From contig CBDCOX010000002.1 in the NCBI GenBank assembly GCA_965219995.1, forward strand, positions 2,432,001-2,496,000: a stretch of 64,000 nt of DNA, given 5' to 3'. The notes beneath the pieces were generated by a model, which was not told the DNA's origin, did not search any database, and worked only from the letters and a program-made list of their open reading frames with translations. The translations under genes and the position numbers were made by a program. Shown one piece after another: positions 5,001 through 61,500 of this stretch (within the stretch, counting starts at the first letter, position 1; every line of letters begins with the position of its first letter). The DNA comes from Candidatus Latescibacterota bacterium. Lineage in GTDB: Bacteria; Latescibacterota; UBA2968; GCA-2709665.

Positions 5001-5936
5001 CTATCGCGGCCGGAGTTCGATGTGCTTCCGCTCGCAGTCCAATGCCTGGGCAACCGAACGAAGGAGTCGTACGACCACCCCGTCCGACCCGCCCAGAAAT
5101 CGGATATCGTGCGCAATCGCCTTCAACGCGTACTGTCCCAGCTCCATCCCGTAGACGTGCATGCCCTCCCGCATGTGCTTCCAGTGCGGCCGGCACGTCC
5201 GGTACCCGTTCGGCAGGAAGGCAATCGGCACGTCCACGGCCTCCCGCATTTCCAGCACCACCGGCCACAGGTCCTCCGGTTCCCGAATCCCGCCGCCGCC
5301 CAGGACGTCGGACCCGTCGCCGGCCAGAACACGCGCGCATTCGGCGGGCGCGACGCCGTCGGCTGTTACTTCGTCGTCTCCAAGGAGCGGATTGTTCAAT
5401 CGGCCGTCCGGCAACGCGACGTCCATGGAAACCACGACCGGAAGCGCTGTCTTCCTGCAGCAGGCCAGCGCCAGGCGCGCCTCGTCCAGCCGACCGAAGG
5501 ACTCGCAGACGAGGAGATCCACGCCCGCGTCTGCCAATATCTCCACCTGCTCCTCCCACTCCGCCACGGCGCGGCCCGCCGATCCGGCATCGCCGGCCTG
5601 AAAGGCGTCCGTTGGTAACAACGTACCCGCGACCAGCGCCTCCGGTCCGGCCGCGCGTTTCGCCAGGGCCACGGCCCGCCGGTTCAATGCGTCGACCGGG
5701 TCGCCCCCGCCCCCTGTCCCACGTTCGCCAACGCCGGTTCGCGTACACCGGCCCGTGAGGGCTCTGATCACACCGGCGCCGGCCCGGAAGAAATCCTGGT
5801 GGACCAGCCGCACCGCGTCCGGGAAGTCCTCGAGCACCCACGGCGCCGTGTACCCCCGCAGCCTCAGCTCCTCCTCGTTTCCACCGTCGGCCAGCACAAA
5901 CCCATCCTTAAGAGCACCTAAGACAGACTCAGCCAT
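5001..5936 (-). CDS. Homocysteine S-methyltransferase family protein lacking Zn-binding cysteines (HMT-2)
   Basis: LADGG, VHQDFFRAGA, CESF; but GxNC site is GGGG and GGCCG site is GGSDG. Confidence 0.8.
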   Translation of the reverse strand: MAESVLGALKDGFVLADGGNEEELRLRGYTAPWVLEDFPDAVRLVHQDFFRAGAGVIRALTGRCTRTGVGERGTGGGGDPVDALNRRAVALAKRAAGPEALVAGTLLPTDAFQAGDAGSAGRAVAEWEEQVEILADAGVDLLVCESFGRLDEARLALACCRKTALPVVVSMDVALPDGRLNNPLLGDDEVTADGVAPAECARVLAGDGSDVLGGGGIREPEDLWPVVLEMREAVDVPIAFLPNGYRTCRPHWKHMREGMHVYGMELGQYALKAIAHDIRFLGGSDGVVVRLLRSVAQALDCERKHIELRPR

Positions 5937-5959
5937 AAAACCGCTCCTCTCCTATAATC

Positions 5960-6273
5960 GTCTCACGTCTAACATCGGTGAGAGGTAAGACGGGAGACGG
6001 TAGATGACATCTTTGCCCGATTGGATTTTCCTTTATGCCTCCGGCAAGAAATGAAACCGCACCAGGCAATCACATCCTCTACCGTCTCACCTCTACCCTC
6101 TCCCCGCCCTTGAGGGGCCGGGGGGAGAGGTCGCCAAAAATCGGTGAGAGGTAAGAGGGTAGACGGTAGATGACATCCTTGCCCGTTCGGTTCTTCCTTG
6201 ATGCCTCCGGCAAGAAATGCAACCGCACCTGGCAGTCACATCCTCTCCCGTCTAACGTCTTACGTCTTCCCGC
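5960..6273. repeat. Heptamer-armed palindromic repeat cluster A (2 cores)
   Basis: (G/T)AGACG-type heptamer arms flanking core TTGCCCG...TATGCCTCCGGCAAGAAATG...GGCAA, closed by complementary CGTCTC/CGTCTA arms. Confidence 0.85.
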
Positions 6274-8277
6274 CTAATGCCAGCTGTGAACCCTGTGCCC
6301 CGAATGCGGGAACCAGATGGCGTCCACGACCGTGCCCGCGATCACCGCGACGATATATGCCGTGAGGATCCCGATGAAAAAGGGCAGCGACCGCCGGTAG
6401 AATGCCGTGCCGCCGATCCTCAGCATTAGGAACTTGATCAGCCACGCGACCAGTAGCGTGAGGCTTTCCAGCCTGGCGAATATCGTTCCCGACAGCGCGA
6501 ACCCGATCGGATGCAGCCGCCATCGGGGCAGCCGGTACCGCATCAGGTTCAGGGCCGTCATCACAACCACGCCCGCCAGGAACAGCCAGTATTCCACGGC
6601 CAGGATGGGCCTGGGGTTGCGCAGGGCATCCACGGCCAGGCCGTAGTGCCATTCACCCTCGTGAAGGATCAGCCAGTTCGGCTGGAAATTGTATCCCCCC
6701 ATGGTGTAGGCCATCCAGACCGTTTGGAGCGTGGAAACCACCGTGCCGACCATGAACGCCCCGAACACCCCCCAGAAAAAGCGCCGTTTGCCTTCGGGGA
6801 TGAAGTCCCCCAGCCGGTTCACCTGCGCGATCACCGGCAGCGCGAAGCTCCTGGGGTGGTTGACCGTGAACGACAGCAGGCTGGAGGCGGCGTTCGTGGA
6901 CGGGTTCAGCCTGTGCGCTCCGCCCAGCCCGAACAGCGCGTAGTCCCAGGCCACCGCCGGCGGATCCACGTAGACAAGCCCCGAGTCGGCGACCACCTTC
7001 GCCACGCCGATGTAGACGATGAACATGGCCGGCGTCAAGACCAGGATCATCGCCGGCTCGATGCCGACCTGCGCGAGCCAGGCCGCAATGTACACGAAGC
7101 AGACGACCAGCCCGATCACAGCCGCACGATAGGATATCCACTCCCTGCTGTCGTCCAGGGCGGAACCGCCGGGGCGGACCGCCTTCCGGAATACCTCCCG
7201 AAGGTGCCCCCTGGAAATCCAGAGCCACCAGATGACCAGCGCCGCGAAGGCGCCGGCCGTCTGGAACTTGTAACTCGTCAGGTTATACGGACCGGAACCG
7301 TAGTGCGGGGACGTCGCCACCACGCCCAGCCGGTTCAGAATTCCGGCTTCGATCATGTAGAGGATATCGAAGAACCAGATACTGAAGAGGACTTCCAGGT
7401 TGGCGAAATAGGAAAAGCAGATGACGAATATACTCAGATAGACGCAGAACGGGGGATACTGTTTCGGCAGGAGGTCCCACACATAGTTCATGCGGGTGTT
7501 CATCACCCGGGGAAAGGCCGGATAGAACCAGTGCACCATATTCAGCCAGAAAATCCCCGACGTCAGCCCGAAGCCCGCCCAGAAGGCCTTTCCCTTCATG
7601 AATTCCGGCAGGACCCGCTCCCCGGACCCGCTCCGGTTCGCCATTTCCAGGACGGGTGTGAGCGCGGGGTAGACCAGCTTTTCGTGGTCCGCCCACTGGC
7701 GGTGAAGAATCACCGACACGCAGACACAGGCAAACCCGAGAACGGCGATAAAGCCGAACCACCACAACAGCGGTCCCCACCAGTCGTGCCAGGGAATGGA
7801 CATCCCGGCCGGAAGGCCTTCGAAAAACATGGTGATGGACTGCCGTTCGTCCGTCGAGATCAGCCAGCCGGGAAGATGCGGGTGCAGATACTCCGACCAC
7901 CGGTTCTCGGGTGTGGCGAAGTAGTACGGCGCCACCATCTGGCTGACGAGATATCCGCTGATCCCGTACGTGGGGCCCATGGCGCTGACCAGGACCATGC
8001 CGAAAATCGTGATCCATTCCGCGGGCGCCAACACGAAACGCCGGCCGAACCATCGGGCAAACGCGGCGCAAATGAGCAACGACAGCAGAAAGAGCAGGAG
8101 GTTGCCCATGGGGATCAGGCTGATGGCCATATACGACCCGTGCTGGACGTAACGCATCGTATTGGCGAGCAGATTGACGGCTACGGACAGCCCAAGCCCG
8201 AAACCGACAGCGCGAGTCGTTACGCCCCCCCGCACCGGATACCGTTTCCGCGGTGCCGCCGTGCCGCCTTCCGCCAT
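6274..8277 (-). CDS. DUF6785/DUF6784-like multi-pass membrane protein, putative transporter
   Basis: 667 aa, many TM segments, QWADHEKLVYP, WRLHPIGF, IGGTAFYRRSLPFFIG motifs. Confidence 0.75.
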   Translation of the reverse strand: MAEGGTAAPRKRYPVRGGVTTRAVGFGLGLSVAVNLLANTMRYVQHGSYMAISLIPMGNLLLFLLSLLICAAFARWFGRRFVLAPAEWITIFGMVLVSAMGPTYGISGYLVSQMVAPYYFATPENRWSEYLHPHLPGWLISTDERQSITMFFEGLPAGMSIPWHDWWGPLLWWFGFIAVLGFACVCVSVILHRQWADHEKLVYPALTPVLEMANRSGSGERVLPEFMKGKAFWAGFGLTSGIFWLNMVHWFYPAFPRVMNTRMNYVWDLLPKQYPPFCVYLSIFVICFSYFANLEVLFSIWFFDILYMIEAGILNRLGVVATSPHYGSGPYNLTSYKFQTAGAFAALVIWWLWISRGHLREVFRKAVRPGGSALDDSREWISYRAAVIGLVVCFVYIAAWLAQVGIEPAMILVLTPAMFIVYIGVAKVVADSGLVYVDPPAVAWDYALFGLGGAHRLNPSTNAASSLLSFTVNHPRSFALPVIAQVNRLGDFIPEGKRRFFWGVFGAFMVGTVVSTLQTVWMAYTMGGYNFQPNWLILHEGEWHYGLAVDALRNPRPILAVEYWLFLAGVVVMTALNLMRYRLPRWRLHPIGFALSGTIFARLESLTLLVAWLIKFLMLRIGGTAFYRRSLPFFIGILTAYIVAVIAGTVVDAIWFPHSGHRVHSWH

Positions 8278-35270: not shown

Positions 35271-35326
35271 ACGAAGGTCTGTTTATTGAAGGCTGTGATG
35301 GGTAACAGGACGAGGAAAAATCTGAA

Positions 35327-36022
35327 AGCGGTGAGACGGTAGACGTGAGACGGTAGAAGACGTCATTGCCCGTCTGGTTCTTCCTTTATGCCTCCGGCGA
35401 GAAATGAAAACGCACAGGGAAATAAAATCCGTTAGACGCAAGACGGTAGACGGTAGATGACATCCTTGCCCGATTGGTTTCTCCTTTATGCCTCTGGCAA
35501 GAAATGCACCCGAACGGGGCAACAAAAACGGTGAGACGTGAGACGCAAGACGGGAGAAGACGTCTTTGCCAGATTGGTTCTTCGTTTATGCCTCTGGCTA
35601 GAACTGAAACCGCACCGGGCAATCACATCCTCTACCGTCTCCCCTCTACCCTCTCACGCCTTTAGGGCACTCACGGAATCTCCCGTCTAACGTCTTACGT
35701 CTACCCGCTCTTCAGGCACTCACAGTATCTCCCGTCTCCCTTCTCCCCTCTTACCGCTTTTGAGGGGCCGGGGGGAGAGGTCTGCGAAAAATCGGTGAGA
35801 CGTGAGACGCAAGACGGTAGATGACATCCTTGCCCGATTGGTTCGTCCCTTTTGCCTCCGGCAAGAAATGAAGCCGCACCGTGCGATCACATCCTCTACC
35901 GTCTCACCTCTACCGTCTCACCGCATTTAGGGCATTCACGGAATCTCCCGTCTAACGTCTTACGTCTACCCGCTCTTCGGGCACTCATATCATCTCCCCT
36001 CTCCCGTCTCCCGTCTCCCCGC
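35327..36022. repeat. Heptamer-armed palindromic repeat cluster B (4 cores, nested arms)
   Basis: L-core-L-core-L-core-R-R-R, spacer TGAGGGGCCGGGGGAGAGGTC, then L-core-R-R-R. Confidence 0.88.
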
Positions 36023-36046
36023 TTTTTGCTGATCGCTTTTCTTACC

Positions 36047-39291: not shown

Positions 39292-39365
39292 AACACGCTC
39301 CTCCATAATTACGATACTCAGTGTTGAATTAACCCACCAGCAGTCCTCAGATGAAAGACCTGAAA

Positions 39366-39633
39366 GCGGTGAGACGTGAGACGGTAGACGGTAGATTACA
39401 TCCTTCGCCCGATTGGTTCTTCCCTTATGCCTCCGGCAAGAAATGAATCCGCACATGGCAGCAACACCCGTGAGACGCAAGACGGTAGACGGGAGAAGAC
39501 GTCATTGCCCGTTTGGTTTCTCCTTTATGCCTGCGGCAAGAGATGATACCGAACAGGCACTTACATCATCTCACGACTTACGTCTCCCGTCTACCCTTTT
39601 TTGGCACTCATATCATCTCACGTCTAACCGCCG
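39366..39633. repeat. Heptamer-armed palindromic repeat cluster C (2 cores)
   Basis: L-core-L-core-R-R with same TATGCCTCCGGCAAGAAATG-type core. Confidence 0.85.
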
Positions 39634-42110: not shown

Positions 42111-42127
42111 CCAACTCCTCCTAACTT

Positions 42128-42690
42128 CGGTAAGACGGGAGACGGGAGACGGGAGACGGTAGAGGACATCATTGCCCGGTTGGTCATTCCCTTATGCCTC
42201 CGGCAAGAAATGAAAACGCACAGGGCAATAAAACCGGTGAGACGCAAGACGGGAGACGGTAGATGACATCCTTGCCCGGTTAGTTACTCCCTTATGCCTC
42301 CGGCAAGAAATGAAGCCGCACAGGGCAAGAAAACCGGTGAGACGGGAGACGCAAGACGGTAGATGACATCCTTGCCCGGTTGGATCTTCCCTCTATGCCT
42401 CCGGCAAGACAAGAATCCGCACAGGGCAATAAAACCGGTGAGACGGTAGGGGAAAACGTTACCACAGTGCTTCCACATTAACCGTGCCTGCCAAATTGCC
42501 TTTATCGTATCCACCATAATGAACCAAACGGCACTCATTTTCTCTCCCCTCTTACGTCTAACGTCTCCCCGCTTCTGAGGGGTCGGGGGGAGAGGTCTGC
42601 GCGCATATCAGCGGCAAATTTCGCCAGGCCGTTTCGTAATCCTATGGGCGCGGGCTGTCATCTCACGTCTCCCGTCTCACGTCTCCCCCG
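42128..42690. repeat. Heptamer-armed palindromic repeat cluster D (3 cores, ~100-bp period)
   Basis: Three tandem L-core units, further arm, then CGTCTC right arms and the TGAGGGGTCGGGGGAGAGGTC spacer. Confidence 0.88.
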
Positions 42691-42806
42691 GGGAAGAGGG
42701 TCGAGGAAGGGGGAACCGTAATCGCTTGACGGGCCGTTTGCGGTTGAAATTGAAAGAGAAACGGCAGCCGGATATCAGGCTGCCATTCATCATTCGGAAT
42801 ATACGG

Positions 42807-43256
42807 TCAGCGAGTGCCATGGGGATCCCCCGATGCGAGGTATTCATCGTGCCTGGAGGAGACTTGTGGATCAGGGTGTGTAATTGCGCCAACGAACCGT
42901 AGGATGTCACCGGCATATATCAGTCCCTGTTCGCTCTGAAGTGGACCATAGTGTTCGTAGGCTGCTCCTTCAGGGTGCAAGTTCGGGCAACGGGTTGGTA
43001 TGAAGTAGTTGTCGAGCGACCGTCCTTGTTCGACGAGGCGCTGGGGCGGCGGATCCGAAAGTTCCGACAGAAGGCGGGCGACAACGTGGCGGCGTGCGCG
43101 CGTTCCGCTGGCGAGATGGAGCGCCTTGACGGCTCTTTCCGCGGCCTGGTGCGCGGCGAAGCAGGCCCAGTCGTGACGGCCGTCATTGCGTGAAGCCGTT
43201 GCCTGTTCCAAGTCGTGCTCCGCCTGGGCGAGCCAATCCCGCCATCGCTGCGCCAT
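42807..43256 (-). CDS. HEPN domain protein (C-terminus probably non-native)
   Basis: WLAQAEHDLE.A...WACFAAHQAAE.A.KA, LD.Y.IPTR.P; start MAQRW at 43256. Confidence 0.8.
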   Translation of the reverse strand: MAQRWRDWLAQAEHDLEQATASRNDGRHDWACFAAHQAAERAVKALHLASGTRARRHVVARLLSELSDPPPQRLVEQGRSLDNYFIPTRCPNLHPEGAAYEHYGPLQSEQGLIYAGDILRFVGAITHPDPQVSSRHDEYLASGDPHGTR

Positions 43257-43431
43257 CCTGCCTCTCCATCCCTGGTCGCAAATTATCCGGATTCTTCTTG
43301 ATCCGCCCCGGCATTTCGTATGACTTCCGGTGTTGCGACTGCCCCTTTGCGTGGAAGCCAAAATATCCCTAATCGAAAGCATAAGCAAGGGGAAATGGTC
43401 CAGCGGCCGCCGTCCGGCGAAGGATAATGCA

Positions 43432-43460
43432 TTGACTGGAGGTGTACCGATATATACCTT
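43432..43460 (+). promoter_or_regulatory. Putative sigma70 promoter upstream of MNT gene
   Basis: TTGACT - 17 bp - TACCTT. Confidence 0.4.
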
Positions 43461-43558
43461 TTATACCTTTGCACCATTTCGCGGTCGTGTTCGTCAGAAC
43501 CTGGAGGAGTGAATAACGCCGAACGCCGCGTTTGGAGACAATCAGAAGGACATGATCT

Positions 43559-43849
43559 ATGAACAGAGATGAAGCTCTCAAGCTGCTCCGCGAGCACAAG
43601 GCAATCCTTGCACAGCGCTTTGGGGTTGTGGACCTTGCCCTGTTCGGGTCAATCGTCCGCAACCGGGCTACGGACAACAGCGACGTGGACGTCCTGGTAA
43701 ATTTCGACTCGCCGGCGACGTCAAAGCGGTATTTCGGAGTTCAGTTCTACATCGAAGACCTGCTGGGACGCCCAGTTGATCTGGTAACGGACAAAGCATT
43801 ACGAGCGGAGATGCGTCCATATATCAAGCGGGAGATGATCGTTGTCTGA
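43559..43849 (+). CDS. Minimal nucleotidyltransferase (MNT antitoxin family)
   Basis: LFGS..R......SDVDVLV, LGRPVDLVT. Confidence 0.88.
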   Translation: MNRDEALKLLREHKAILAQRFGVVDLALFGSIVRNRATDNSDVDVLVNFDSPATSKRYFGVQFYIEDLLGRPVDLVTDKALRAEMRPYIKREMIVV

Positions 43850-43869
43850 CGTCAATACGGAGATTGATC

Positions 43870-44088
43870 ATGAAGTCATTCGAGAGGATCACCATCGATC
43901 CAGAGGTCATGGGCGGCAAAGCATGCATTCGTGGTCTGCGCGTTACGGTTGGAACTGTCGTCGGACTCCTGGCGGCGGGCCGCTCGCGCGAGGAAATCCT
44001 CAAGGAATATCCCTACATTGAACGGGAAGACATCGATCAATCCATGGGCTACGCCGTGGAGAAAGTAAGAAGTAAGAATGAAAAATGA
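43870..44088 (+). CDS. DUF433 domain antitoxin (C-terminus runs into heptamer tract)
   Basis: ITIDPEVMGGKACIRGLRVTV...EEILKEYPY.EREDI. Confidence 0.88.
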   Translation: MKSFERITIDPEVMGGKACIRGLRVTVGTVVGLLAAGRSREEILKEYPYIEREDIDQSMGYAVEKVRSKNEK

Positions 44089-44858
44089 AGAAGGGAAAAT
44101 CGCGGCACTGATAAGCCGAATGACGTGTAGGCGTCATGAAGGAGGAACGAGAAAGGAAAAACGAAAAATGAAGAAAGGAAAATCGTGTGGCTGATGAGCT
44201 GAATGTCAAGAAAAATGGCAAGAGGAAGCAGGAAGACGCGGCTGATCTGCGGTCTCGGACGAAGGCATTCGCGCTGCAGGTCATTCGCCTGTATTCGGGT
44301 CTTCCCAGGCGAGCCGAGGCACAAGTCATCGGCCGGCAAATGATCCGTTCCGGAACGTCGGTGGGAGCGAATTACCGTGAGGCATATCGCGCACGGAGCA
44401 AAGCGGAGTTCATTGCAAAGGCTGGCGAGTGTTTGAAGGAGATCGAAGAGACCAGTTATTGGCTTGAGTTGCTCGTGGACTCAGGAATCGTTACCGAGGA
44501 GCGACTTGCAGACCTGACAAATGAGTGCGGTGAACTGACCGCGATTTTCGTCGCTTCAATTCGGACGGCGAAGAGAAACAAAGAGAAATGAAGAAGGAGG
44601 AAGGGAAAAGGAAAAACGAAAAAGGAAGAATGAAAAAGGAGAAATCTCGTGATGGAGTAGAGAGGTGATTTCCGTTTGTCCTACTCTTTTCATTCCTCCT
44701 TACATCAGATCGAACCCCTGCGACAGGCCACATGCTCTTCCTGCTTTCATTTCTTCGTTCTTCATTCGGCCTTCTTCCTTCAGCTTGAAACCCCGCGGCA
44801 GACCACGCGCTTATCCTGCTTTTAATTCTTCATTCTGCATTCTTCCTTCTTCCTTTTT
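44063..44858. repeat. Purine heptamer tracts and complementary pyrimidine tracts bracketing the four-helix-bundle gene
   Basis: AA(T/G/C)GAA(A/G)-type runs at 44063, 44139, 44587; (C/T)TTC(A/C/G)TT-type runs at ~44667, ~44745, ~44821. Confidence 0.8.
44187..44591 (+). CDS. Four helix bundle protein (TIGR02436 / 23S rRNA IVS-like family)
   Basis: DLRSRTKAFAL.VI.L, Q.IRSGTSVGANYREA.RARSKAEFIAK, KE.EET.YWLELL. Confidence 0.92.
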   Translation: MADELNVKKNGKRKQEDAADLRSRTKAFALQVIRLYSGLPRRAEAQVIGRQMIRSGTSVGANYREAYRARSKAEFIAKAGECLKEIEETSYWLELLVDSGIVTEERLADLTNECGELTAIFVASIRTAKRNKEK

Positions 44859-44870
44859 TATGAGAATATC

Positions 44871-45107
44871 GTGCCCAAGGTCAGCGCTAGACGACAGATA
44901 ACGCTACCGGCCGATCAGTGCCGTTTGGCCGGCATTGAGCCAGGTGACGAGTGCCTGAGTTTCGTGGATGATGGCGGCATCACCATCGTCCGCCAGCAGC
45001 CCGGTAGGGCATGGGGATGCTTGGCGCGCCTTGAAGGCGAACCGACGGATTCAGATGAGGCGTCGCTCCAGGACGCCATTGAAAGCAAGCGGAGCCAAAC
45101 GCCTTGA
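44871..45107 (+). CDS. AbrB/MazE/SpoVT family antitoxin
   Basis: KVSARRQITLP...AGIEPGD. Confidence 0.8.
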   Translation: MPKVSARRQITLPADQCRLAGIEPGDECLSFVDDGGITIVRQQPGRAWGCLARLEGEPTDSDEASLQDAIESKRSQTP

Positions 45108-45168
45108 TCGCGATCGACACCCATGTCCTGCCGCGCTATCTTTCGAGAGACGACGAAGCGCAGGTTGA
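45104..45168 (+). pseudogene. 5' stub of PIN/VapC toxin
   Basis: TTG overlapping antitoxin stop, MIAIDTHVLPRYLSRDDEAQ, broken by IS21-like end at 45169. Confidence 0.65.
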
Positions 45169-45279
45169 CGTTAATGATCACCGATATGCACCATCGTAGG
45201 GCCTTACATATCAGATCTCCCTACATTAAAGATGTTTTGTATCATCACCAGTGTAGGGATACCCCCTCCAAATGTTAAG

Positions 45280-45318
45280 AAAAGGCCCTGGGCTGTTCAT
45301 CACAGCCCAGGGCCTTTT
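45280..45318. terminator. Bidirectional intrinsic terminator
   Basis: Perfect 17-bp inverted repeat AAAAGGCCCTGGGCTGT-tcatc-ACAGCCCAGGGCCTTTT. Confidence 0.8.
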
Positions 45319-45333
45319 GAGGGGTGTAAAACC

Positions 45334-45501
45334 TTATTTATTCGAACTTTTGTTCCCACTGCTGCGATTCAATTGCACAGAGCGATTGTCCCTCGCAGCC
45401 TTATGCGCAGGGCTGGTCGGATTATGCTGATTCGCGTGGTGATTACGGTCGCCCTGGGACCAGTTACTACTGCCTTTGCCGCTGCCTTTACCTCGACCCA
45501 T
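45334..45501 (-). CDS. Small 55-aa hydrophilic protein with N..NQ.NP-type repeats
   Basis: Not in ORF track; AAGGGGGTGA RBS, MGRGKGSGKGSSNWSQGDRNHHANQHNPTSPAHKAARDNRSVQLNRSSGNKSSNK, followed by terminator. Confidence 0.7.
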   Translation of the reverse strand: MGRGKGSGKGSSNWSQGDRNHHANQHNPTSPAHKAARDNRSVQLNRSSGNKSSNK

Positions 45502-45716
45502 TTCTGATCACCCCCTTTAATTTGAAGGTCTGTGGTCTTAGATTCGCGAACCAACACATAGGTTTCACTCTGTCAACACACATAACCGAAATCAGCCAAC
45601 GCCCTATCTAGCTTTACCGCTTGCCCTTCGCGGTCCGGCCACCGCACTGCTCAAACCGCTCAATACAAAGCCCCTGCAGCAAGTCCGTGTCCTATCCAGT
45701 TGAATATCCGGGTCTC

Positions 45717-45812
45717 CGTAAATGATCGGCCTAATGCGGCCACTTCAGGATCGGCCTAATCAGGCCACCTGGTAACAATTGGGGCTTCGGACTTCCCGTC
45801 ACTGTTTCTACC
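45717..45812 (+). mobile_element. IS21-like terminal repeat module (left boundary of defence island)
   Basis: 25-bp-period GATCGGCCTAATGCGGCCAC units plus tail nearly identical to 56345-56436. Confidence 0.65.
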
Positions 45813-46011
45813 AACATGAACCCCTCGGGACAGCCCACGCGCTTATCCTGCTTTTATTTCTTCCTTCTGCATTTTTCCTTATAGATAGCGGCTGCGTGTT
45901 GCTCGTGCTGCCAAGCAGATGACCCCGATGAAAGATCTCATCGGGGTCTCTTTGTGTGTCGCACAACGCGTCGAACTGGTCGCGAAATGCGTCATATTCG
46001 GCTGAGCCGCA

Positions 46012-46040
46012 TTGACCAACAATGAAGATTGTCGTATATT
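46012..46040 (+). promoter_or_regulatory. Putative sigma70 promoter for hsd/prrC operon
   Basis: TTGACC - 17 bp - TATATT, followed by imperfect AT-rich palindrome 46042-46071. Confidence 0.5.
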
Positions 46041-46131
46041 GCGACTTCTATATAGGATAACATATATAGTCCGATCGAATTAGACGAGTTTACGAAACGG
46101 GGCGTTCGCAGGGACTGACATTTCCCGCGCT

Positions 46132-46212
46132 CGGGAACTGAATGCGCGCGACAGAATCGACGCGATGTTGAATCAGGCCGGCTGGAAGGTGCAGTCAAAG
46201 AACGAGATCGAC
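46132..46212 (+). pseudogene. N-terminal stub of a different type I HsdR (EcoEI/EcoKI-like)
   Basis: ELNARDRIDAMLNQAGWKVQSKNEID resembles the E..AR..ID..L..AGW.VQ HsdR N-terminal motif; no start, no continuation. Confidence 0.55.
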
Positions 46213-46313
46213 TCCTTCATCCGCGTTATCGAATCCAACATCGGCTCGCGTTCGCATTCAACACTGGACATTCGGACCCTTTCAGCAGACGCCAAGAGGA
46301 GTAAGTCCCCGCG

Positions 46314-49300
46314 ATGGCGATGATCACGCCCGAACGCAAGCTTGAAGAGTCCCTTGTCGCGAAGCTACGGGACCTCAAGTACGAATATCGCTCCGACATC
46401 CGCGATCGATCCACGCTTGAAGCAAACTTCAGGGAAAAATTCGAAGCCCTGAACCGTGTCAACCTCACGGATGGCGAGTTCGAACGGCTTCTCGACGAGA
46501 TCGTCACACCAGACGTTTACGAAGCCGCCCGAACCCTCCGCAACCGGGAAGCGTTCGAACGCGACGACGGTACACCGCTCAACTACACCCTCGTCAACAT
46601 CAAGGATTGGTGCAAGAACACCTTCGAGGTCGTCAATCAGCTCCGCATCAATACGGACTACAGCCATCACCGCTACGACGTCATGCTCCTGATCAACGGC
46701 ATCCCTGTCGTTCAAGTTGAACTAAAGACGCTTGGCATCAGCCCCCGGCGGGCGATGAAGCAGATCGCCGAATACAAGAGCGACCCCGGCAACGGATACA
46801 CCAAGACGCTTCTTTGCTTCATCCAGCTCTTCATCGTCAGCAACCGCACGGACACGTGGTACTTCGCCAACAACAACGCGCGGCACTTCGCCTTCGACGC
46901 GGACGAGCGGTTCCTTCCGATCTACCGGTACGCGGACGAGGACAACACGACGATCGCCTATCTCGACGAATTCGCCGAACGATTCCTCGCCAAGTGCACG
47001 CTCGGCGAGGTGATCAGCAAGTACATGGTTCTCATCGCGAGCGAGCAGAGGCTCCTGGTGATGCGCCCGTACCAGATCTATGCCGTCAAGGCCATCGTCG
47101 AATGCATCGATCAGAACAGTGGTAACGGATATATCTGGCACACGACCGGCTCGGGAAAGACGCTCACCTCTTTCAAGGCTTCGACGCTCCTCAAGACCAA
47201 CGAGAGCATCCACAAGTGCCTCTTCGTCGTCGACCGCAAGGACCTCGACCGCCAGACCCGCGAGGAGTTCAACCGGTTCCAGGAGAACTGCGTCGAGGAA
47301 AACACCAACACCGCGGCGCTCGTCCGGCGCCTCCAGTCCGATGACTACGCGGACAAGGTCATCGTCACGACCATCCAGAAGCTCGGGCTCGCACTCGACG
47401 AGAACAGCAGGCGCAACAAGCAGAACATCGCGCAAGGGAAGTCAACGTTCAAACAGGAGCTTGAGCAACTCCGCGACAAGCGGATGGTCTTCATCTTTGA
47501 TGAGTGCCATAGGTCACAGTTCGGCGAAAACCACAAAGCCATCAAGCAGTTCTTCCCGAACTCTCAACTCTTCGGCTTCACTGGCACCCCGATTTTCGAG
47601 GACAACGCGACCATCAGGCAGATCGAGGGTGACGTTTCCACCCTTCGAACCACAAAAGACCTCTTTCAGAAAAAGCTCCACGCCTACACCATCACCCACG
47701 CGATCGAGGATCGGAACGTCCTCCGCTTCCACGTCGACTACTATAAGCAAAAGAACGTCCCCGCCCTCAAGCCAGGTCAGACCGTCGCCAAGCAGGCGGT
47801 CGCTCAGGCGATCCTCGACAAGCACGATGCCGCGACCAGCAGACGACGCTTCAACGCGCTGTTTGCCACCGCCTCCATCAACGACGCCATCGAGTACTAC
47901 GAAGTCTTCAGGAACCTCCAGGCCGAGCGCCAGACCACCGACCCTGAGTTCGTGCCTCTCAAGATCGCCGCGGTCTTCTCGCCGCCGGCGGAGGGCAACA
48001 AAGACGTCCAGCAGATTCAGGAGGATCTTCCCCAGGAGAAGGAGGACAACCGGCACGACCCCGAGGGCAAGAAGAACGCGCTCAGGGCCATCATTGCGGA
48101 CTACAACCAGCAGTACGACACGAACCACGACATCAACAACTTCGACCTCTATTACCAAGACCTCCAGCAGCGCATCAAGGACCAGCAATTCCCCAATCGC
48201 GACATGCCCGAAAAGGGCGCCGAGAAGATCGACATCACTATCGTCGTCGAAATGCTCCTCACCGGCTTCGACGCCTTGTACCTCAACACACTCTACGTCG
48301 ACAAGAACCTCAAGCACCACAGCCTGATCCAGGCCTTCTCCCGCACCAACCGCATTCTTAACGCGACCAAGCCCTACGGCCAGGTAATTGACTTCCGGCA
48401 GCAGCAAGACAGCGTCGACGCCGCCATCGCTCTCTTTTCCGGTGCGCAGGCTGACCGGGCCCGCGAGATCTGGCTGGTGGACAAGGCTCCCGTCGTCATC
48501 GACAACTTCAAACAGGCTGTCGCCGCCCTCGGCCAGTTCATGCAGTCGCAGGGCCTCGAAGCCAGGCCGGATCAGGTGAACAACCTGATGGGCGACGTCG
48601 CGCGCGCCCAGTTCATTAATTGGTTCAAGGATGTCCAGCGCCTCAAGACGCAGCTCGATCAGTACACCGACCTCACCGACGAGCAGCGCGAGCAGATTGA
48701 GAAGGCCCTCCCCATGGACAACCTCCGCGCCTTCCGCGGCGCTTACCTCGAAACCGCCCAGCGCCTGAAAGAGCAACAGGGGATGCCCGCCGGCGACGGC
48801 GATCCGGCCAATCTCGAGGTTCACCAGCTCGACTTCGAGTTCGTCCTCTTCGCCTCCGCCCTCATCGACTACGACTACATCATGAAGCTGATCGCCAGGT
48901 ACTCGACTCAGGACCCGATGAAGCTGACGATTAGCCGAGAGCAACTCATTGGTCTGATTCAGTCCGACGCGAACTTCCTCGACGAGCGGGAGGAGATCAC
49001 CGACTACGTCCGCTCACTTAAGGAGGGCGAAGGCCTCGACGAGGCCGAGGTCCGCACTGGCTACGAGCAGTTCAAGGCCGATAAGCAGGCCATGGAAATC
49101 GTGAACCTCGCCCAAGCCCACGGTCTGACGACCCAGTCCCTATCGGCCTTCGTCGACACCATCCTCCAGCGCATGATCTTCGACGGGGAGCAGCTCACCG
49201 ACCTTATGGAACCGCTCGAACTTGGCTGGCGTGATCGCCGTCAGCGCGAACTCGCATTGATGGCGGATCTCGTTCCACTGCTGAACAAGCGGGCCCACGG

Positions 49301-49334
49301 GAGGGACATCTCGGGCCTTAACGCCTACGAGTAG
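46314..49334 (+). CDS. hsdR: Type I restriction enzyme R subunit (EcoR124I-like)
   Basis: RYDV.LLING.P..QVELK nuclease, WHTTGSGKT, DECHRSQ, FGFTGTP, MLLTGFD, QAFSRTNR. Confidence 0.95.
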   Translation: MAMITPERKLEESLVAKLRDLKYEYRSDIRDRSTLEANFREKFEALNRVNLTDGEFERLLDEIVTPDVYEAARTLRNREAFERDDGTPLNYTLVNIKDWCKNTFEVVNQLRINTDYSHHRYDVMLLINGIPVVQVELKTLGISPRRAMKQIAEYKSDPGNGYTKTLLCFIQLFIVSNRTDTWYFANNNARHFAFDADERFLPIYRYADEDNTTIAYLDEFAERFLAKCTLGEVISKYMVLIASEQRLLVMRPYQIYAVKAIVECIDQNSGNGYIWHTTGSGKTLTSFKASTLLKTNESIHKCLFVVDRKDLDRQTREEFNRFQENCVEENTNTAALVRRLQSDDYADKVIVTTIQKLGLALDENSRRNKQNIAQGKSTFKQELEQLRDKRMVFIFDECHRSQFGENHKAIKQFFPNSQLFGFTGTPIFEDNATIRQIEGDVSTLRTTKDLFQKKLHAYTITHAIEDRNVLRFHVDYYKQKNVPALKPGQTVAKQAVAQAILDKHDAATSRRRFNALFATASINDAIEYYEVFRNLQAERQTTDPEFVPLKIAAVFSPPAEGNKDVQQIQEDLPQEKEDNRHDPEGKKNALRAIIADYNQQYDTNHDINNFDLYYQDLQQRIKDQQFPNRDMPEKGAEKIDITIVVEMLLTGFDALYLNTLYVDKNLKHHSLIQAFSRTNRILNATKPYGQVIDFRQQQDSVDAAIALFSGAQADRAREIWLVDKAPVVIDNFKQAVAALGQFMQSQGLEARPDQVNNLMGDVARAQFINWFKDVQRLKTQLDQYTDLTDEQREQIEKALPMDNLRAFRGAYLETAQRLKEQQGMPAGDGDPANLEVHQLDFEFVLFASALIDYDYIMKLIARYSTQDPMKLTISREQLIGLIQSDANFLDEREEITDYVRSLKEGEGLDEAEVRTGYEQFKADKQAMEIVNLAQAHGLTTQSLSAFVDTILQRMIFDGEQLTDLMEPLELGWRDRRQRELALMADLVPLLNKRAHGRDISGLNAYE

Positions 49335-56289: not shown

Positions 56290-56645
56290 TGATAATGATC
56301 GCCCATATGCGGCCAATGCGGGACCGGCATAATGAGGCCAGCTGAAGATCGGCCTAATGGGGCCACTACAGGATCGGCGTAATCAGGCCACCTGGTAACA
56401 ATTGGGGCTTCGGACGTCCCGTCAACGTTTCTACCGACTGGAATTCCGGAGACACAGGTTGTATTGATTTCTTCCTTCTTCGTTTTGCCTTCTTCCTTCA
56501 GATCGAATCCCGGCGACGAACCACGCGCCTATCCTGTTTTTGCTTCTTCGTTCTTCCTTTAGATTTGTCAATGATCGCCCATATGCGGCCAATGCGGGAT
56601 CGCCCTAATGGGGCCACTTCAGGATCGGCCTAATGCGGCCACCTG
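56290..56645 (+). mobile_element. Two further IS21-like left-end modules (56290-56436, 56566-56645)
   Basis: TG(A/T)(T/C)AATGATCGCCCATATGCGGCCAATGCGGGA followed by 25-bp-period repeats; same as 57970. Confidence 0.7.
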
Positions 56646-56658
56646 ATACCAATTGAAG

Positions 56659-57969: not shown

Positions 57970-58245
57970 TGTTAATGATCGCCCATATGCGGCCAATGCG
58001 GGATCGGCATAATGAGGCCACCTGGGATGCGATAAAGGTTTCGGACTATCCGGCAACGGTTCTACCTTCTTTCTGTCTCCCCGACAGTCAGGAGGGAAGG
58101 ACATGGCCAATCGGAGGTTCGAGATGTATCAGTATCGTCAGGTATTGACGCGTATGCGGTTGGGCAGTCGGATCGCGCGATCGCCCGTTCATGGTTGATG
58201 AGACGCCAGAAGACCAGTGCGCTACGTCACGTGGCAGGCCGTTAG
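57970..58245 (+). mobile_element. istA: IS21-family remnant: left end plus frameshifted istA 5' stub
   Basis: TGTTAATGATC... end; GGAGG RBS; ATG 58103 MANRRFEMYQYRQVLTRMRLG then shifted frame SDRAIARS. Confidence 0.72.
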
Positions 58246-59677: not shown

Positions 59678-59826
59678 CCGATACGAGCAAACAACGCATC
59701 CTGGTTACCGTAAAATCCTGCCCGACGCTTTCGTTGTTGCAAAACGCGACGGTTTGCGATAGACTCGGCGAGCTCATCGCTGGCGCCAAAAGCAACACAG
59801 TCTCGCTTGCTGTATTCAAGCCGGGC
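59674..59826 (+). pseudogene. Internally deleted, truncated partner gene of the DUF488 locus
   Basis: TTGA overlap; RILVTVKSCPTLS directly joined to ...SLAVFKP; cut by tandem repeat at 59827. Confidence 0.55.
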
Positions 59827-61500
59827 GATTCTTCGACTCCGCTCAGAATGACATGCGTCGTAATAACCAAAAGCGAGATGTTTCGGTCAACCCTTCGCCA
59901 AACTGTGACGAAGACGTTTCAAAGGTGGGGCGGGCACTCCTGTCTGCCGGCCTCGCGTCGTTCGGGCTTCCTCAATTCGGGCATTTCGACAAGCTCAATG
60001 ACCACGTATGGAAATGTTCAATGAACGTCATTGAGCCGCGAAATCGTTCCGTTCATACCCTCGCCCAACATGTCATCCTGAGGCGGCCGTTCTGCCTGCC
60101 GGCGGTTCATCGGCTGGCTGGCTGACGAAGGATCTACTGCGGCATCGCTTAAACCCGAGCGTCTTATATCATTCGCCCCGGGCTGGCAGGCGGCACGTTT
60201 GCGCCTACACGGTCGGGCTGAGCCGGCGCTAGAGAAACCAGGCCTCCGCGCATATGGGTCAGTGATGGCTTCCGCTACACTTCAAACCGAGAAGACGGGA
60301 GATTCTTCGACTCCGCTCAGAATGACATGCATTGCGATAGCCATTGGCGAGATGTTTCGGTCATACCTTCGCCAAACTGTGACGATGACGTTTTGAAGGT
60401 GGGGCGGACATTCCTGTCTGCCGGCCTCGCGTCGTTCGGGCTGCCTCAACGCGGGCATTTCGACAAGCTCAATGACCACGCGTTGTTAGGCAATCTCCGA
60501 TGTCGCTCAGAATGACAGACCGGCTGATCGCCAAACATGTCATCCTGAGGAAGCCGCCCTGCCTGCCAGCGGATCATCGGCAGGCTGGCTGACGAAGGAT
60601 CTACTGCGGCATCGCTTGATACCCGAGCGTGTTCTGTCATTCGCGGAGAGTTGGCAGGCGGCACGTTTGCGCCTACACGGTCAGGCTAAGCCGGCGCGAG
60701 AGAAACCATGCCTCCGCGCAAAGGTTTGTATTCAAAAGGCTTGCGCTACACGTCCCGTCGAGAAGACGGGAGATTCTTCGACTCCGCTCAGAATGACATG
60801 CATTGCGATAGCCATTGGCGAGATGTTTCGGTCATACCTTCGCCAAACTGTGACGAAGACGTTTCGAAGGTGGGGCGGACATTCCTGTCTGCCGGCCTCG
60901 GGTCGTTCGGGCTGCCTGAATGCGGGCATTTCGACAAGCCACTTCGGCAAGCTCAGTGCAAGCAATGACCACGCGTTGTTAGGCAAACTTCGATTTCGCT
61001 CAGAATGACAGGACGACCAACCGCCCAACCTGTCATCCTGAGGAAGCCGCCCAGCCTGCCGGCGATTCATCGGCAGGCAGGCTGACGAAGGATCTACTGC
61101 GGCATCGCTTAAACCCGAGCGTGTTCTGTCATTCACGGAGAGTTGGTAGGCGGCACGTTTGCGCCTACACGGTCAGGCTGAGCCGGCGTGAGAGAAACCA
61201 TGCCTCCGCGCATATGGGTCAGTGATGGCTTCCGCGGCACGTCAACCCGAGAAGACGGGAGATTCTTCGACTCCGCTCAGAATGACACGCGTCGTAATAA
61301 CCAAAAGCGAGATGTTTCGGTCATACCTTCGCCAAACTGTGACGAAGACGTTTCGAAGGTGGGGCGGACATTCCTGTCTGCCGGCCTCGCGTCGTTCGGG
61401 CTGCCTGAATGCGGGCATTTCGACAAGCTCAATGACCACGCGTTGGTAGGCAATCTCCGATGTCGCTCAGAATGACATGCGTTGCGATAGCCATTGGCGA
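59827..61500. repeat. Tandem array of ~475-bp composite REP units (3.5 copies)
   Basis: GATTCTTCGACTCCGCTCAGAATGACA at 59827, 60301, 60772, 61261 (periods 474, 471, 489) with conserved internal sequence. Confidence 0.92.

Follow-up and report, generated by a model that had tools for sequence, protein, structure and literature searches.

What kind of element encloses a protein-coding gene between nested, mutually complementary tracts of seven-nucleotide repeats? The question is raised by a locus in a 64,000-nucleotide (nt) stretch of DNA from Candidatus Latescibacterota bacterium (assembly GCA_965219995.1, contig CBDCOX010000002.1, positions 2,432,001 to 2,496,000 of the forward strand), which at its full 64-kb length is called the window here and is numbered from its first letter. 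The gene encodes a four-helix-bundle (4HB) protein of family TIGR02436/PF05635, members of which also lie in intervening sequences (IVSs) of 23S rRNA. We are highly confident that this gene and its repeats form a cassette of defined anatomy that recurs across phyla, that its protein is under purifying selection, that a corresponding tract inside hsdS genes is conserved, and that the window copy descends from a type I restriction operon. That the repeats pair in RNA and are cut there by RNase III is a tentative proposal, to which we give somewhat less than even weight. The full statement, according to which the window holds one copy of a widespread cassette with both this anatomy and this mechanism, is evenly balanced in our judgment.

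Two purine heptamer tracts precede the 4HB open reading frame (ORF), a third overlaps its stop codon, and complementary pyrimidine tracts follow at 44669-44702, 44736-44782 and 44811-44859, as a preliminary description of the locus had noted (Table 1). A lag-7 scan of the whole window gave 10 period-7 segments passing the filter, four of which are at the cassette (44057-44100, 44134-44183, 44586-44646 and 44817-44863). Tandem Repeats Finder reported period-7 arrays at 44063-44078, 44146-44182, 44586-44644, 44751-44781 and 44825-44852, and a 75-nt direct repeat spanning 44713-44855. The units thus run head to tail with period 7, as in STRR-type simple repeats, and some of them overlap coding ends; STRR is the name of the short tandem heptamer repeats of cyanobacteria. 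Between purine and pyrimidine tracts there are inverted repeats of 31-37 nt with 73-87% complementarity, namely 44062-44092 with 44826-44856 (87%) and 44145-44181 with 44745-44781 (73%), and tract 3 forms a hairpin of 44622-44636 with 44687-44701 (93%). The best arm alignment of the window reaches a z score of 12.3, indicating complementary termini and a long stem around the insert. The minimum free energy (MFE) of 44040-44880, the cassette region that was folded, is -289.6 kcal/mol compared with -261.1 +/- 7.4 kcal/mol for 20 shuffles, none of which was as good (z -3.85). In this fold, tract 1 pairs with the last pyrimidine tract and tract 2 with the middle one, and tract 3 forms its hairpin with the first, so that the nested stems around the ORF that had been suggested are borne out by the prediction. 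A Rfam scan of the window found no family, rRNA included, at gathering score; by this measure the element matches no known RNA family and is not an insertion in an rRNA helix.

The signals for translation are part of the arms. A Shine-Dalgarno (SD)-like AAGGA upstream of the GTG start codon lies within purine tract 2, and the stop codon falls within tract 3. Likewise, in this subfamily the 5' arm contains an SD-like sequence and the start codon, and the stop codon adjoins the 3' arm. One arm pair is the rule among the relatives, and the counterpart of their 5' arm (tracts at -39 to -11 from residue 21) is a fourth purine tract of the window, 44208-44238; a multi-module layout like that of the window is kept in loci L001, L006 and L007.

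The association of gene and arms is widespread. Protein relatives at E<=0.001 numbered at least 7994 among 8000 candidates scored, and in alignment A1 the relatives' N termini (MKEEGRRKKEE) and C termini (KSNEEKEKGRKKKEE) resemble translated purine tracts. In a scan of 185,579 species genomes, 588 of 597 pattern matches were confirmed as relatives, and the best 80 loci (57-84% identity) were kept. By the labels carried by the records, mostly metagenome bins, these belong to Latescibacterota, Nitrospirales, Binatia, Entotheonellaceae, Thermodesulfobacteriota, Gemmatimonadota, Verrucomicrobiota, Planctomycetota, Chloroflexota, Proteobacteria and others. Among 50,697 phage records, 2 gave a match. 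After omission of L027, L030, L038, L077 and L078, which have short flanks or a run of N, 76 usable loci remained (75 plus the window). For each, the best complementary local alignment of the 150 nt that precede residue 21 with the 500 nt that follow the stop codon was compared with mononucleotide shuffles, and the arms exceeded these with z>3 in 64 of the 76 loci and with z>5 in 55. Control arms were picked by the same best-local-alignment rule as the real ones. Real arms outscored a polarity control, complement without reversal, in 52 of 76 loci with 5 ties (median score 18.0 versus 14.5, Wilcoxon p=2e-7), and pairing within a locus exceeded pairing with the 3' regions of other loci in 59 of 76 (p=2.6e-7). 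Of the 84 loci examined for periodicity (the 76 genome loci and the first eight plasmid loci, see below), 70 had seven as best period in the 5' arm and 64 in the 3' region, compared with 10 of 110 control segments. Comparison with shuffled arms and a search for heptamer flanks in homologues had both been proposed in the preliminary description as ways in which its reading might fail, and the reading withstood them. Across the 80 loci, the density of period-7 tracts is 20.5 times higher close to the gene (within 250 nt, 1.02 per kb) than elsewhere (0.050 per kb). The heptamer unit varies between lineages while both arms remain complementary, for example GAAGTAA/TAAGGAA with TTCTTCC/TTCATCC in Verrucomicrobia, GATGAGT with CCTCATC in a Pirellulales bin, TAAAGGA with TTTATCC in a Chloroflexia bin and, elsewhere among the relatives, TTAAGAA/TTCTTAA.

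An independent sample consisted of 16 of 31 matching plasmid records, from cultured Cyanobacteriota, Chloroflexota, Bacteroidota and Spirochaetota, with more distant relatives (34-58% identity). Nostoc, Dolichospermum, Planktothrix and Chlorohelix are among the hosts of these loci, L081 to L096. Complementary arms with z>3 were present in all 16, and many were perfect; the perfect or near-perfect arms of the cyanobacterial plasmids include those of L090 (33/33) and L093 (31/31). Their units include TAATTCG, AATTCAA, CAATTCG, CCAGTGA, AATCGTA/AATCCCC and CAAGTCG. The arms of the cyanobacterial plasmid loci are STRR-type heptamer repeats, and a unit AATTCAA/TTTTGAA flanks the 4HB genes of L093 and L094. 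Both neighbours are co-directional with 4HB in 12 of the 16 loci, and at least 8 are in or beside defence genes (helicase and N6-methylase, csx2 and cas1, DUF1156 and Swt1-HEPN, DrmD and PglX). No recombinase or transposase was a consistent neighbour at the plasmid loci examined. Members of this family as guests in defence loci have been described before: passages of PMC3936711 report that 18 members of the 23S_rRNA_IVP family lie within cas loci, one example being a gene flanked by cmr3 and cmr2. The 4HB genes found here between hsdR and hsdS, csx2 and cas1, DrmD and PglX, DUF1156 and Swt1-HEPN, or helicase and methylase genes resemble these guest genes. Unlike for the loci sampled here, that account, in the same passages, mentions no flanking repeats (PMC3936711).

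The assignment of the protein to the TIGR02436 family, proposed together with a likeness to the Avd protein of diversity-generating retroelements (DGRs), was confirmed by profile scores far above the cut-offs (TIGR02436, 97.1 versus 24 bits; PF05635, 74.4 versus 33.8 bits) and by structures of the S23 family; the Avd likeness is weaker. An AlphaFold2 model has a predicted local distance difference test (pLDDT) score of 88.6 and helices at residues 2-37, 43-67, 72-98 and 104-130, and the tract-coded termini are predicted to be disordered (pLDDT 49-57). A profile search of the PDB gave 2RLD as sole match (6.5e-30). With Foldseek, the model superimposes on 2RLD (BT_0352; template modelling (TM) score 0.86-0.93) and 2GSC (Xcc0516; 0.75-0.86), and on Avd with TM scores of 0.85 (4DWL; root-mean-square deviation 1.9, weak E value of 0.12) and 0.83 (8UB7). 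Avd thus shares the four-helix-bundle fold; unlike an Avd locus, this one gave no PDB profile match to Avd and no reverse transcriptase among its Pfam-scanned neighbours (HEPN, MNT, DUF433, AbrB-type) or the ORFs of 42500-46500, template and variable repeats not having been searched for. Of the motif GxxRxxxSxxxNxxE, as worded in PMC3936711, R54, S58, N62 and E65 are invariant in alignment A1, and Q51 takes the place of the expected G. The protein core (residues 21-125) is under strong purifying selection: the ratio of nonsynonymous to synonymous substitution rates (dN/dS) was 0.00-0.16 in nine evaluable pairs, two more being unusable (one misaligned, one saturated). It was 0.08 between the window and L001, and the cores of L003 and L004 are identical at a dS of 0.50. 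We found no match for the protein among PADLOC defence-system models, and no nucleic-acid-binding annotation for it from PADLOC, Pfam or NCBIfam. No further gene of the same subfamily was found in the window besides the match at 44172-44588, though more divergent members may remain.

The preliminary description had missed where the arm modules come from. In about a quarter of the close relatives 4HB lies between hsdR and hsdS, and 22 of 80 loci match hsdR or hsdS of L003, in which hsdR (ending VIDELNEALAA), 4HB and hsdS overlap end to end. At these hsdR-4HB-hsdS loci the pyrimidine tract lies about 380-450 nt past the 4HB stop codon, within hsdS where the first target-recognition domain (TRD1) ends, and encodes ISSFCLPPFS. 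This 30-nt tract is 81% identical compared with 54% in the 60 nt on either side (55 pairs, 11 loci); since it exceeds in identity flanks that are conserved at the peptide level, this points to a constraint on the nucleic acid. At L025, L019 and other such loci, a second purine tract holds the hsdS start codon, so that TRD1 has a purine tract on one side and the in-gene pyrimidine tract on the other. In L005, a purine tract, about 30 nt and a pyrimidine tract stand where TRD1 is missing.

In the window, module B is colinear with the hsdS segments of L003, L004, L008 and L021 in alignment A4; the other 3' modules, the orphans and the modules of L001, L006 and L007 likewise line up there with the hsdS segment AATGCGGGCGACAGACC.CGCG and the tract that follows it. 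The element CCACGCGCNTATCCTG occurs exactly at 44803, 45835 and 56521; because it recurs at the latter two positions, the orphan 3' arms with a linked motif that had been pointed out there are real. In the lag-7 and tract scans, no purine partner was detected near the orphan at 45808-45882. On the 5' side, each purine tract is followed by a unit similar to the final codons of hsdR, a weaker relic than that of hsdS, and 44058-44122 and 44141-44205 form a direct repeat of 77% identity. Codons 2-6 of 4HB (ADELN) are the counterpart of VIDELN at the C terminus of hsdR in relatives. With up to two mismatches, TGAYGAGYTGAATG has 3 matches where 1.16 are expected, and 12 of 100 shuffles had as many, which is the chance level; alignment with MAFFT (A3) did not place the hsdR-end relic colinearly. 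The hsdR reading, a weak one, thus draws on position after the tracts, on the direct repeats and on the relative loci rather than on TGAYGAGYTGAATG by itself. Because its arm modules carry relics of both genes, the window copy descends from an hsdR-4HB-hsdS operon, and the sequences, as we read them, show that 5' and 3' modules were duplicated after this descent, giving three nested arm pairs.

The same relics allow a more modest account, in which nothing but the gene and possibly one of its arm pairs is of importance in the window and the extra modules, relics and orphans are debris left by unequal recombination in a decayed hsdR-4HB-hsdS operon. A degraded hsdR-end unit after each purine tract, a degraded hsdS segment before each outer pyrimidine tract, orphans without partners, the single arm pair of most relatives and a weak relic of an EcoEI-type hsdR N terminus at 46135-46200 (E 0.01) would all be expected from it. 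Yet the multi-module layout is retained in three related loci, forward and reverse tracts are equal in number and nested in the fold, and unrelated AGACG arrays of the window (see below) are built alike. We consider this account unlikely, though it is the best placed of the alternatives.

How might the cassette work? Its nearest known counterpart is the IVS of Coxiella 23S rRNA, for which the following is taken from passages of PMC4990558. That element has 428 nt and a 28-bp terminal stem with an ORF for the homologous protein, S23p, in the loop; two to three tandem GACAGAT units, varying in number among strains, stand directly before the ATG. RNase III cleaves the stem midway, on the 5' side at the first GACAGAT repeat. 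The cut strips the SD region, S23p is probably not made, and the ORF is reported to be decaying; the authors call origin and function of IVSs unclear. Since the Coxiella stem has tandem heptamers before a homologous ORF, the analogy is structural and goes beyond the family name. As in the IVSs of Coxiella and Leptospira, a PF05635/TIGR02436 ORF lies in the loop of a stem with complementary termini; as in Coxiella, tandem heptamers of variable copy number stand within that stem just before the start codon, and the element measures a few hundred nt and has a sporadic, seemingly horizontally transferred distribution (PMC4990558, same passages). The earlier view of an IVS-like element outside rRNA therefore stands as far as anatomy is concerned, with a stem around an S23p-family ORF and heptamers before its start. 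Unlike the IVSs, the window cassette lies between protein-coding genes (DUF433 and AbrB-type) with no rRNA found by Rfam, has arms of 30-60 nt made of heptamers and triplicated, and encodes a protein under strong purifying selection in place of a decaying, probably untranslated ORF.

The cassette, with the 4HB ORF in the loop of a long stem made of two complementary tandem-heptamer arrays, is lodged co-directionally between genes of a host operon, and by this analogy we propose that it would be transcribed together with that operon. The arms would pair within the transcript, as may be supposed from the ORF-bearing IVSs of 23S rRNA. The stem would then conceal the ribosome-binding site and the start codon of 4HB, both in the 5' arm, and so gate its translation, and cleavage of the stem by RNase III might determine both how strongly 4HB is expressed and whether the host transcript stays continuous. 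As for its spread, cassette copies carry differing amounts of flanking-gene relic, and because such relics are present, transfer was probably imprecise and of a recombination type rather than a precise transposition; no target-site duplication was seen by eye at the Verrucomicrobial copies compared.

Several observations weigh against this proposal or narrow it. In the best arm alignments there were 65 G:T-type mismatches, 62 of A:C type and 214 transversions, so that the excess of G:U wobble pairs that we looked for as a sign of selection on RNA is missing. Because the mismatch classes are symmetric, RNA pairing is not favoured over DNA pairing; pairing could equally matter in DNA, or copying could keep the arms alike. 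A scan of 43300-45300 for promoters and terminators found no signal above shuffles, and co-transcription with the host operon is therefore an assumption. Since 4HB is conserved here and S23p is probably not made in Coxiella, the two elements cannot work identically. Arm pairing did not exceed shuffles in 12 of the 76 loci, and the loci are not independent events because most are related metagenome bins. In MFE folds, 54 of 64 loci had at least 60% of the 5' arm paired with the 3' arm, the folded segments having been trimmed at the arms +/-15 nt, which biases them toward a terminal stem. Heptamer tracts also occur away from 4HB (37 tracts in the 80 loci), and a search for divergent 4HB genes there was unsuccessful: none of 34 ORFs beside 33 of these 37 distant tracts belongs to PF05635.

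The mismatch symmetry suits an explanation in which the arms act at the DNA level: folded into hairpins or cruciforms, they would promote recombination, the duplication and deletion of modules and the uptake of flanking DNA, with template switching or gene conversion homogenising them and RNA pairing incidental. The perfect or near-perfect arms of the cyanobacterial plasmids L090 and L093 suggest such homogenisation, and tandem and dispersed module copies, orphans, flanking-gene relics in the modules and the tract arrangement of L005 with TRD1 missing agree with it. A pure DNA role, however, does not require a start codon and SD-like sequence in the 5' arm or a stop codon abutting the 3' arm, the homologous rRNA element is cut in an RNA stem according to the passages cited (PMC4990558), and recombinases or transposases are not consistently adjacent. 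We rate this explanation at about one chance in a few, behind recombination debris.

Less probable still is that the heptamer arrays are binding sites of their own 4HB protein, serving autoregulation and action on dispersed arrays of the same unit, with complementarity a by-product of two-ended binding. Bacterial heptamer repeats have been described in Xanthomonas (GGGAATC/GGGGAYT type, found also in Nostoc; 70-75 convergent, that is inverted, pairs; passages of PMC4692102), in Beggiatoaceae (TAACTGA; passages of PMC4679880) and in Nostoc (TTTTGAA/TTCAAAA), where an unidentified protein partner has been postulated (passages of bioRxiv 10.1101/2022.06.06.494920). Like those, the cassette repeats are tandem 7-mers in intergenic DNA, vary in copy number and often adjoin start codons; unlike those, they are complementary pairs bracketing one gene family. 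Searches of PMC4692102 and PMC4679880 turned up no reference to S23, intervening sequences or helix-bundle proteins, and neither the passages of these two papers nor the repeat and stem passages of the Nostoc preprint, in which the family terms were not queried, link the repeats to 4HB/S23p or to a gene-enclosing stem. The unit AATTCAA/TTTTGAA at L093 and L094 equals the repeat upstream of recF in Nostoc 7120 given in those preprint passages (bioRxiv 10.1101/2022.06.06.494920). Together with the orphans in the window that repeat the unit of its own cassette, the strong selection on the protein, the change of unit between 4HB lineages in which gene and arms stay together, and a modelled fold like that of Avd in the DGR ribonucleoprotein (4DWL and 8UB7, TM 0.83-0.85), this would fit a protein that recognises its repeats. 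But such binding is purely conjectural, a gene-arm correlation is expected anyway because the two are inherited together, the Foldseek E value to Avd is weak, and the annotation sources named above assign no nucleic-acid binding.

Finally, it is very improbable that the arms have no function and reflect slippage on 7-mers plus coding bias (Lys/Glu-rich tails, the HsdS LPP motif) with pairing by composition, for although heptamers are generally over-represented in bacteria (PMC4692102, in part), the tract-coded termini are predicted to be disordered and the polarity control still scores high, real pairing exceeds both the polarity and the cross-locus controls, arms of unbiased composition (TAATTCG, CCAGTGA, CAAGTCG) are complementary too, tracts are strongly enriched beside the gene, and the tract in hsdS is far more conserved than its flanks.

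Table 1. Features of the cassette, its neighbours and related modules in the window
Feature	Position	Strand	Evidence or remark
4HB protein gene, 134 aa, GTG start	44187..44591	+	TIGR02436 6.5e-28, PF05635 1e-20
Purine heptamer tract 1, outer 5' arm	44057..44100	+	ends AAATC; pairs with 44826-44856
Purine heptamer tract 2, middle 5' arm	44134..44183	+	ends AAATC; pairs with 44745-44781
Purine heptamer tract 3, 8 units	44586..44646	+	ends AAATC; local hairpin with pyrimidine tract a
Degenerate inner purine tract	44208..44238	+	within 5' end of ORF; direct-repeat family D3
Pyrimidine tract a, inner 3' arm	44669..44702	+	inverted repeat and fold
Degenerate copy of post-tract unit; weak relic of last hsdR codons	44101..44133	+	direct repeat; TGAYGAGYTGAATG at 44109, 2 mismatches
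3' module B: hsdS TRD1-end relic (GCGACAGGCCACATGC..), then pyrimidine tract b	44703..44782	+	75-nt direct repeat
3' module C: hsdS relic with exact CCACGCGCTTATCCTG, then pyrimidine tract c	44783..44863	+	outer 3' arm; ends T6 just before next gene
Orphan 3' module: hsdS relic and pyrimidine tract	45808..45882	+	exact motif at 45835; aligned in A4
Two tandem orphan 3' modules	56465..56562	+	period-7 array 56469-56499; motif at 56521; aligned in A4
DUF433 gene; last ~10 codons and stop in purine tract 1	43870..44088	+	PF04255 2.9e-24, domain 1-56 of 56
AbrB/MazE-type antitoxin-like gene, downstream	44871..45107	+	PF04014 7.3e-4, TIGR01439 4.2e-4, below curated cut-offs

The cassette lies in a toxin-antitoxin and restriction island, co-directional between the DUF433 and AbrB-type genes. 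Upstream of 4HB are a HEPN gene on the minus strand, an MNT-type nucleotidyltransferase gene and DUF433; downstream, the AbrB/MazE-like gene is followed by a full-length HsdR, the R subunit of a type I restriction enzyme (46314-49334). Tract 1 had been thought to replace the C terminus of the DUF433 protein. Indeed, of the 13 homologues aligned, 10 (nine with a length of 76 aa) run on as LAYA(A/S)WR(L/V), and the window protein lacks this tail, ending in tract-coded MGYAVEKVRSKNEK with its Pfam domain complete; P0122, P0124 and P0135 have similar purine-coded tails. Directly after the AbrB-type gene, 45104-45190 resembles by eye the start of a PIN/VapC toxin gene for ~25 codons, after which the likeness ends. 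At 46135-46200, 22 residues match the N terminus of the EcoEI-type HsdR of L003 (64% identity, E 0.01); this match lies just upstream of the window's own HsdR, which is of another subtype. A composite repeat of 25-nt tandem units (GATCGGCCTAATGCGGCCACTGCAG type) with a conserved ~60-nt tail adjoins the orphan 3' modules; it occurs at 45724-45812, 56300-56470, 56573-56655 and 57980-58025, and in related bins at L007 6591-6702 and L006 8711-8775.

A second family of nested heptamer arrays in the window has no gene inside (5987-6273, 35331-36026, 39358-39546 and 42124-42690). Its forward modules consist of AGACG-type 7-mers and a ~72-nt unit, repeated up to three times, and are followed by reverse modules of complementary 7-mers and a ~21-nt unit; there are at least 12 module copies in the window and short matches in L007. 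The preliminary description had linked these arrays to the cassette. The bracket logic is common to both and the arrays fold well (35320-35790, z -4.97), but the two share no sequence. Since, in addition, none of the 34 tract-adjacent ORFs belongs to PF05635, the further idea that gene-less palindromes are non-autonomous relatives of the cassette found no support. Large tandem repeats with a period of 471-489 nt occupy 59818-61477 (2-3.5 copies, 84-89% matches).

Other observations concern the relatives. Long pure arrays away from the 4HB match occur at L017 698-826 (CCAGAAC), L033 11573-11692 (GGATGGA) and L071 5243-5329 (CGAATGA); of the ORFs beside the L017 and L033 arrays, L017:5-340 is DUF1501 and the others have no Pfam family. 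In L053 (~5850-6650), the cassette stands between two copies of about 100 nt of upstream flank, after which comes a second, truncated 4HB, and this repeated flank is also present downstream in L037 (~6360-6520). The L053 pattern looks like a tandem duplication of flank and cassette with an internal deletion. We also considered the heptamers as a device that stops or restarts translation in all frames and rejected this, as 5' arms on average close 1.52 frames compared with 1.47 after shuffling, and all three in 16 of 64.

In the freely accessible literature we found no paper tying the TIGR02436/PF05635 family to heptamer arms at its flanks. Complementary heptamer arms accompany this S23p/4HB family wherever we sampled it (64 of 76 loci from genomes and all 16 from plasmids). 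A protein family and a class of repeats, both of unknown function, are thereby connected in a concrete way that can be tested. The sampled loci also show that cassettes of the IVS type reside chiefly in mRNA operons, notably in restriction, CRISPR and toxin-antitoxin loci. The puzzle of the IVSs here meets that of the heptamer repeats, whose role is described as unresolved and for which a partner has been postulated (passages of PMC4692102 and bioRxiv 10.1101/2022.06.06.494920). It is conceivable, if improbable, that S23p-ORF IVSs, 4HB genes of defence islands and bacterial tandem heptamers are one system in which each 4HB paralogue is the sequence-specific partner of one heptamer family. If so, repeats of that family would enclose and regulate the respective 4HB gene, and scattered arrays with the same unit, be it in RNA stems or in DNA, would be the targets of its protein.

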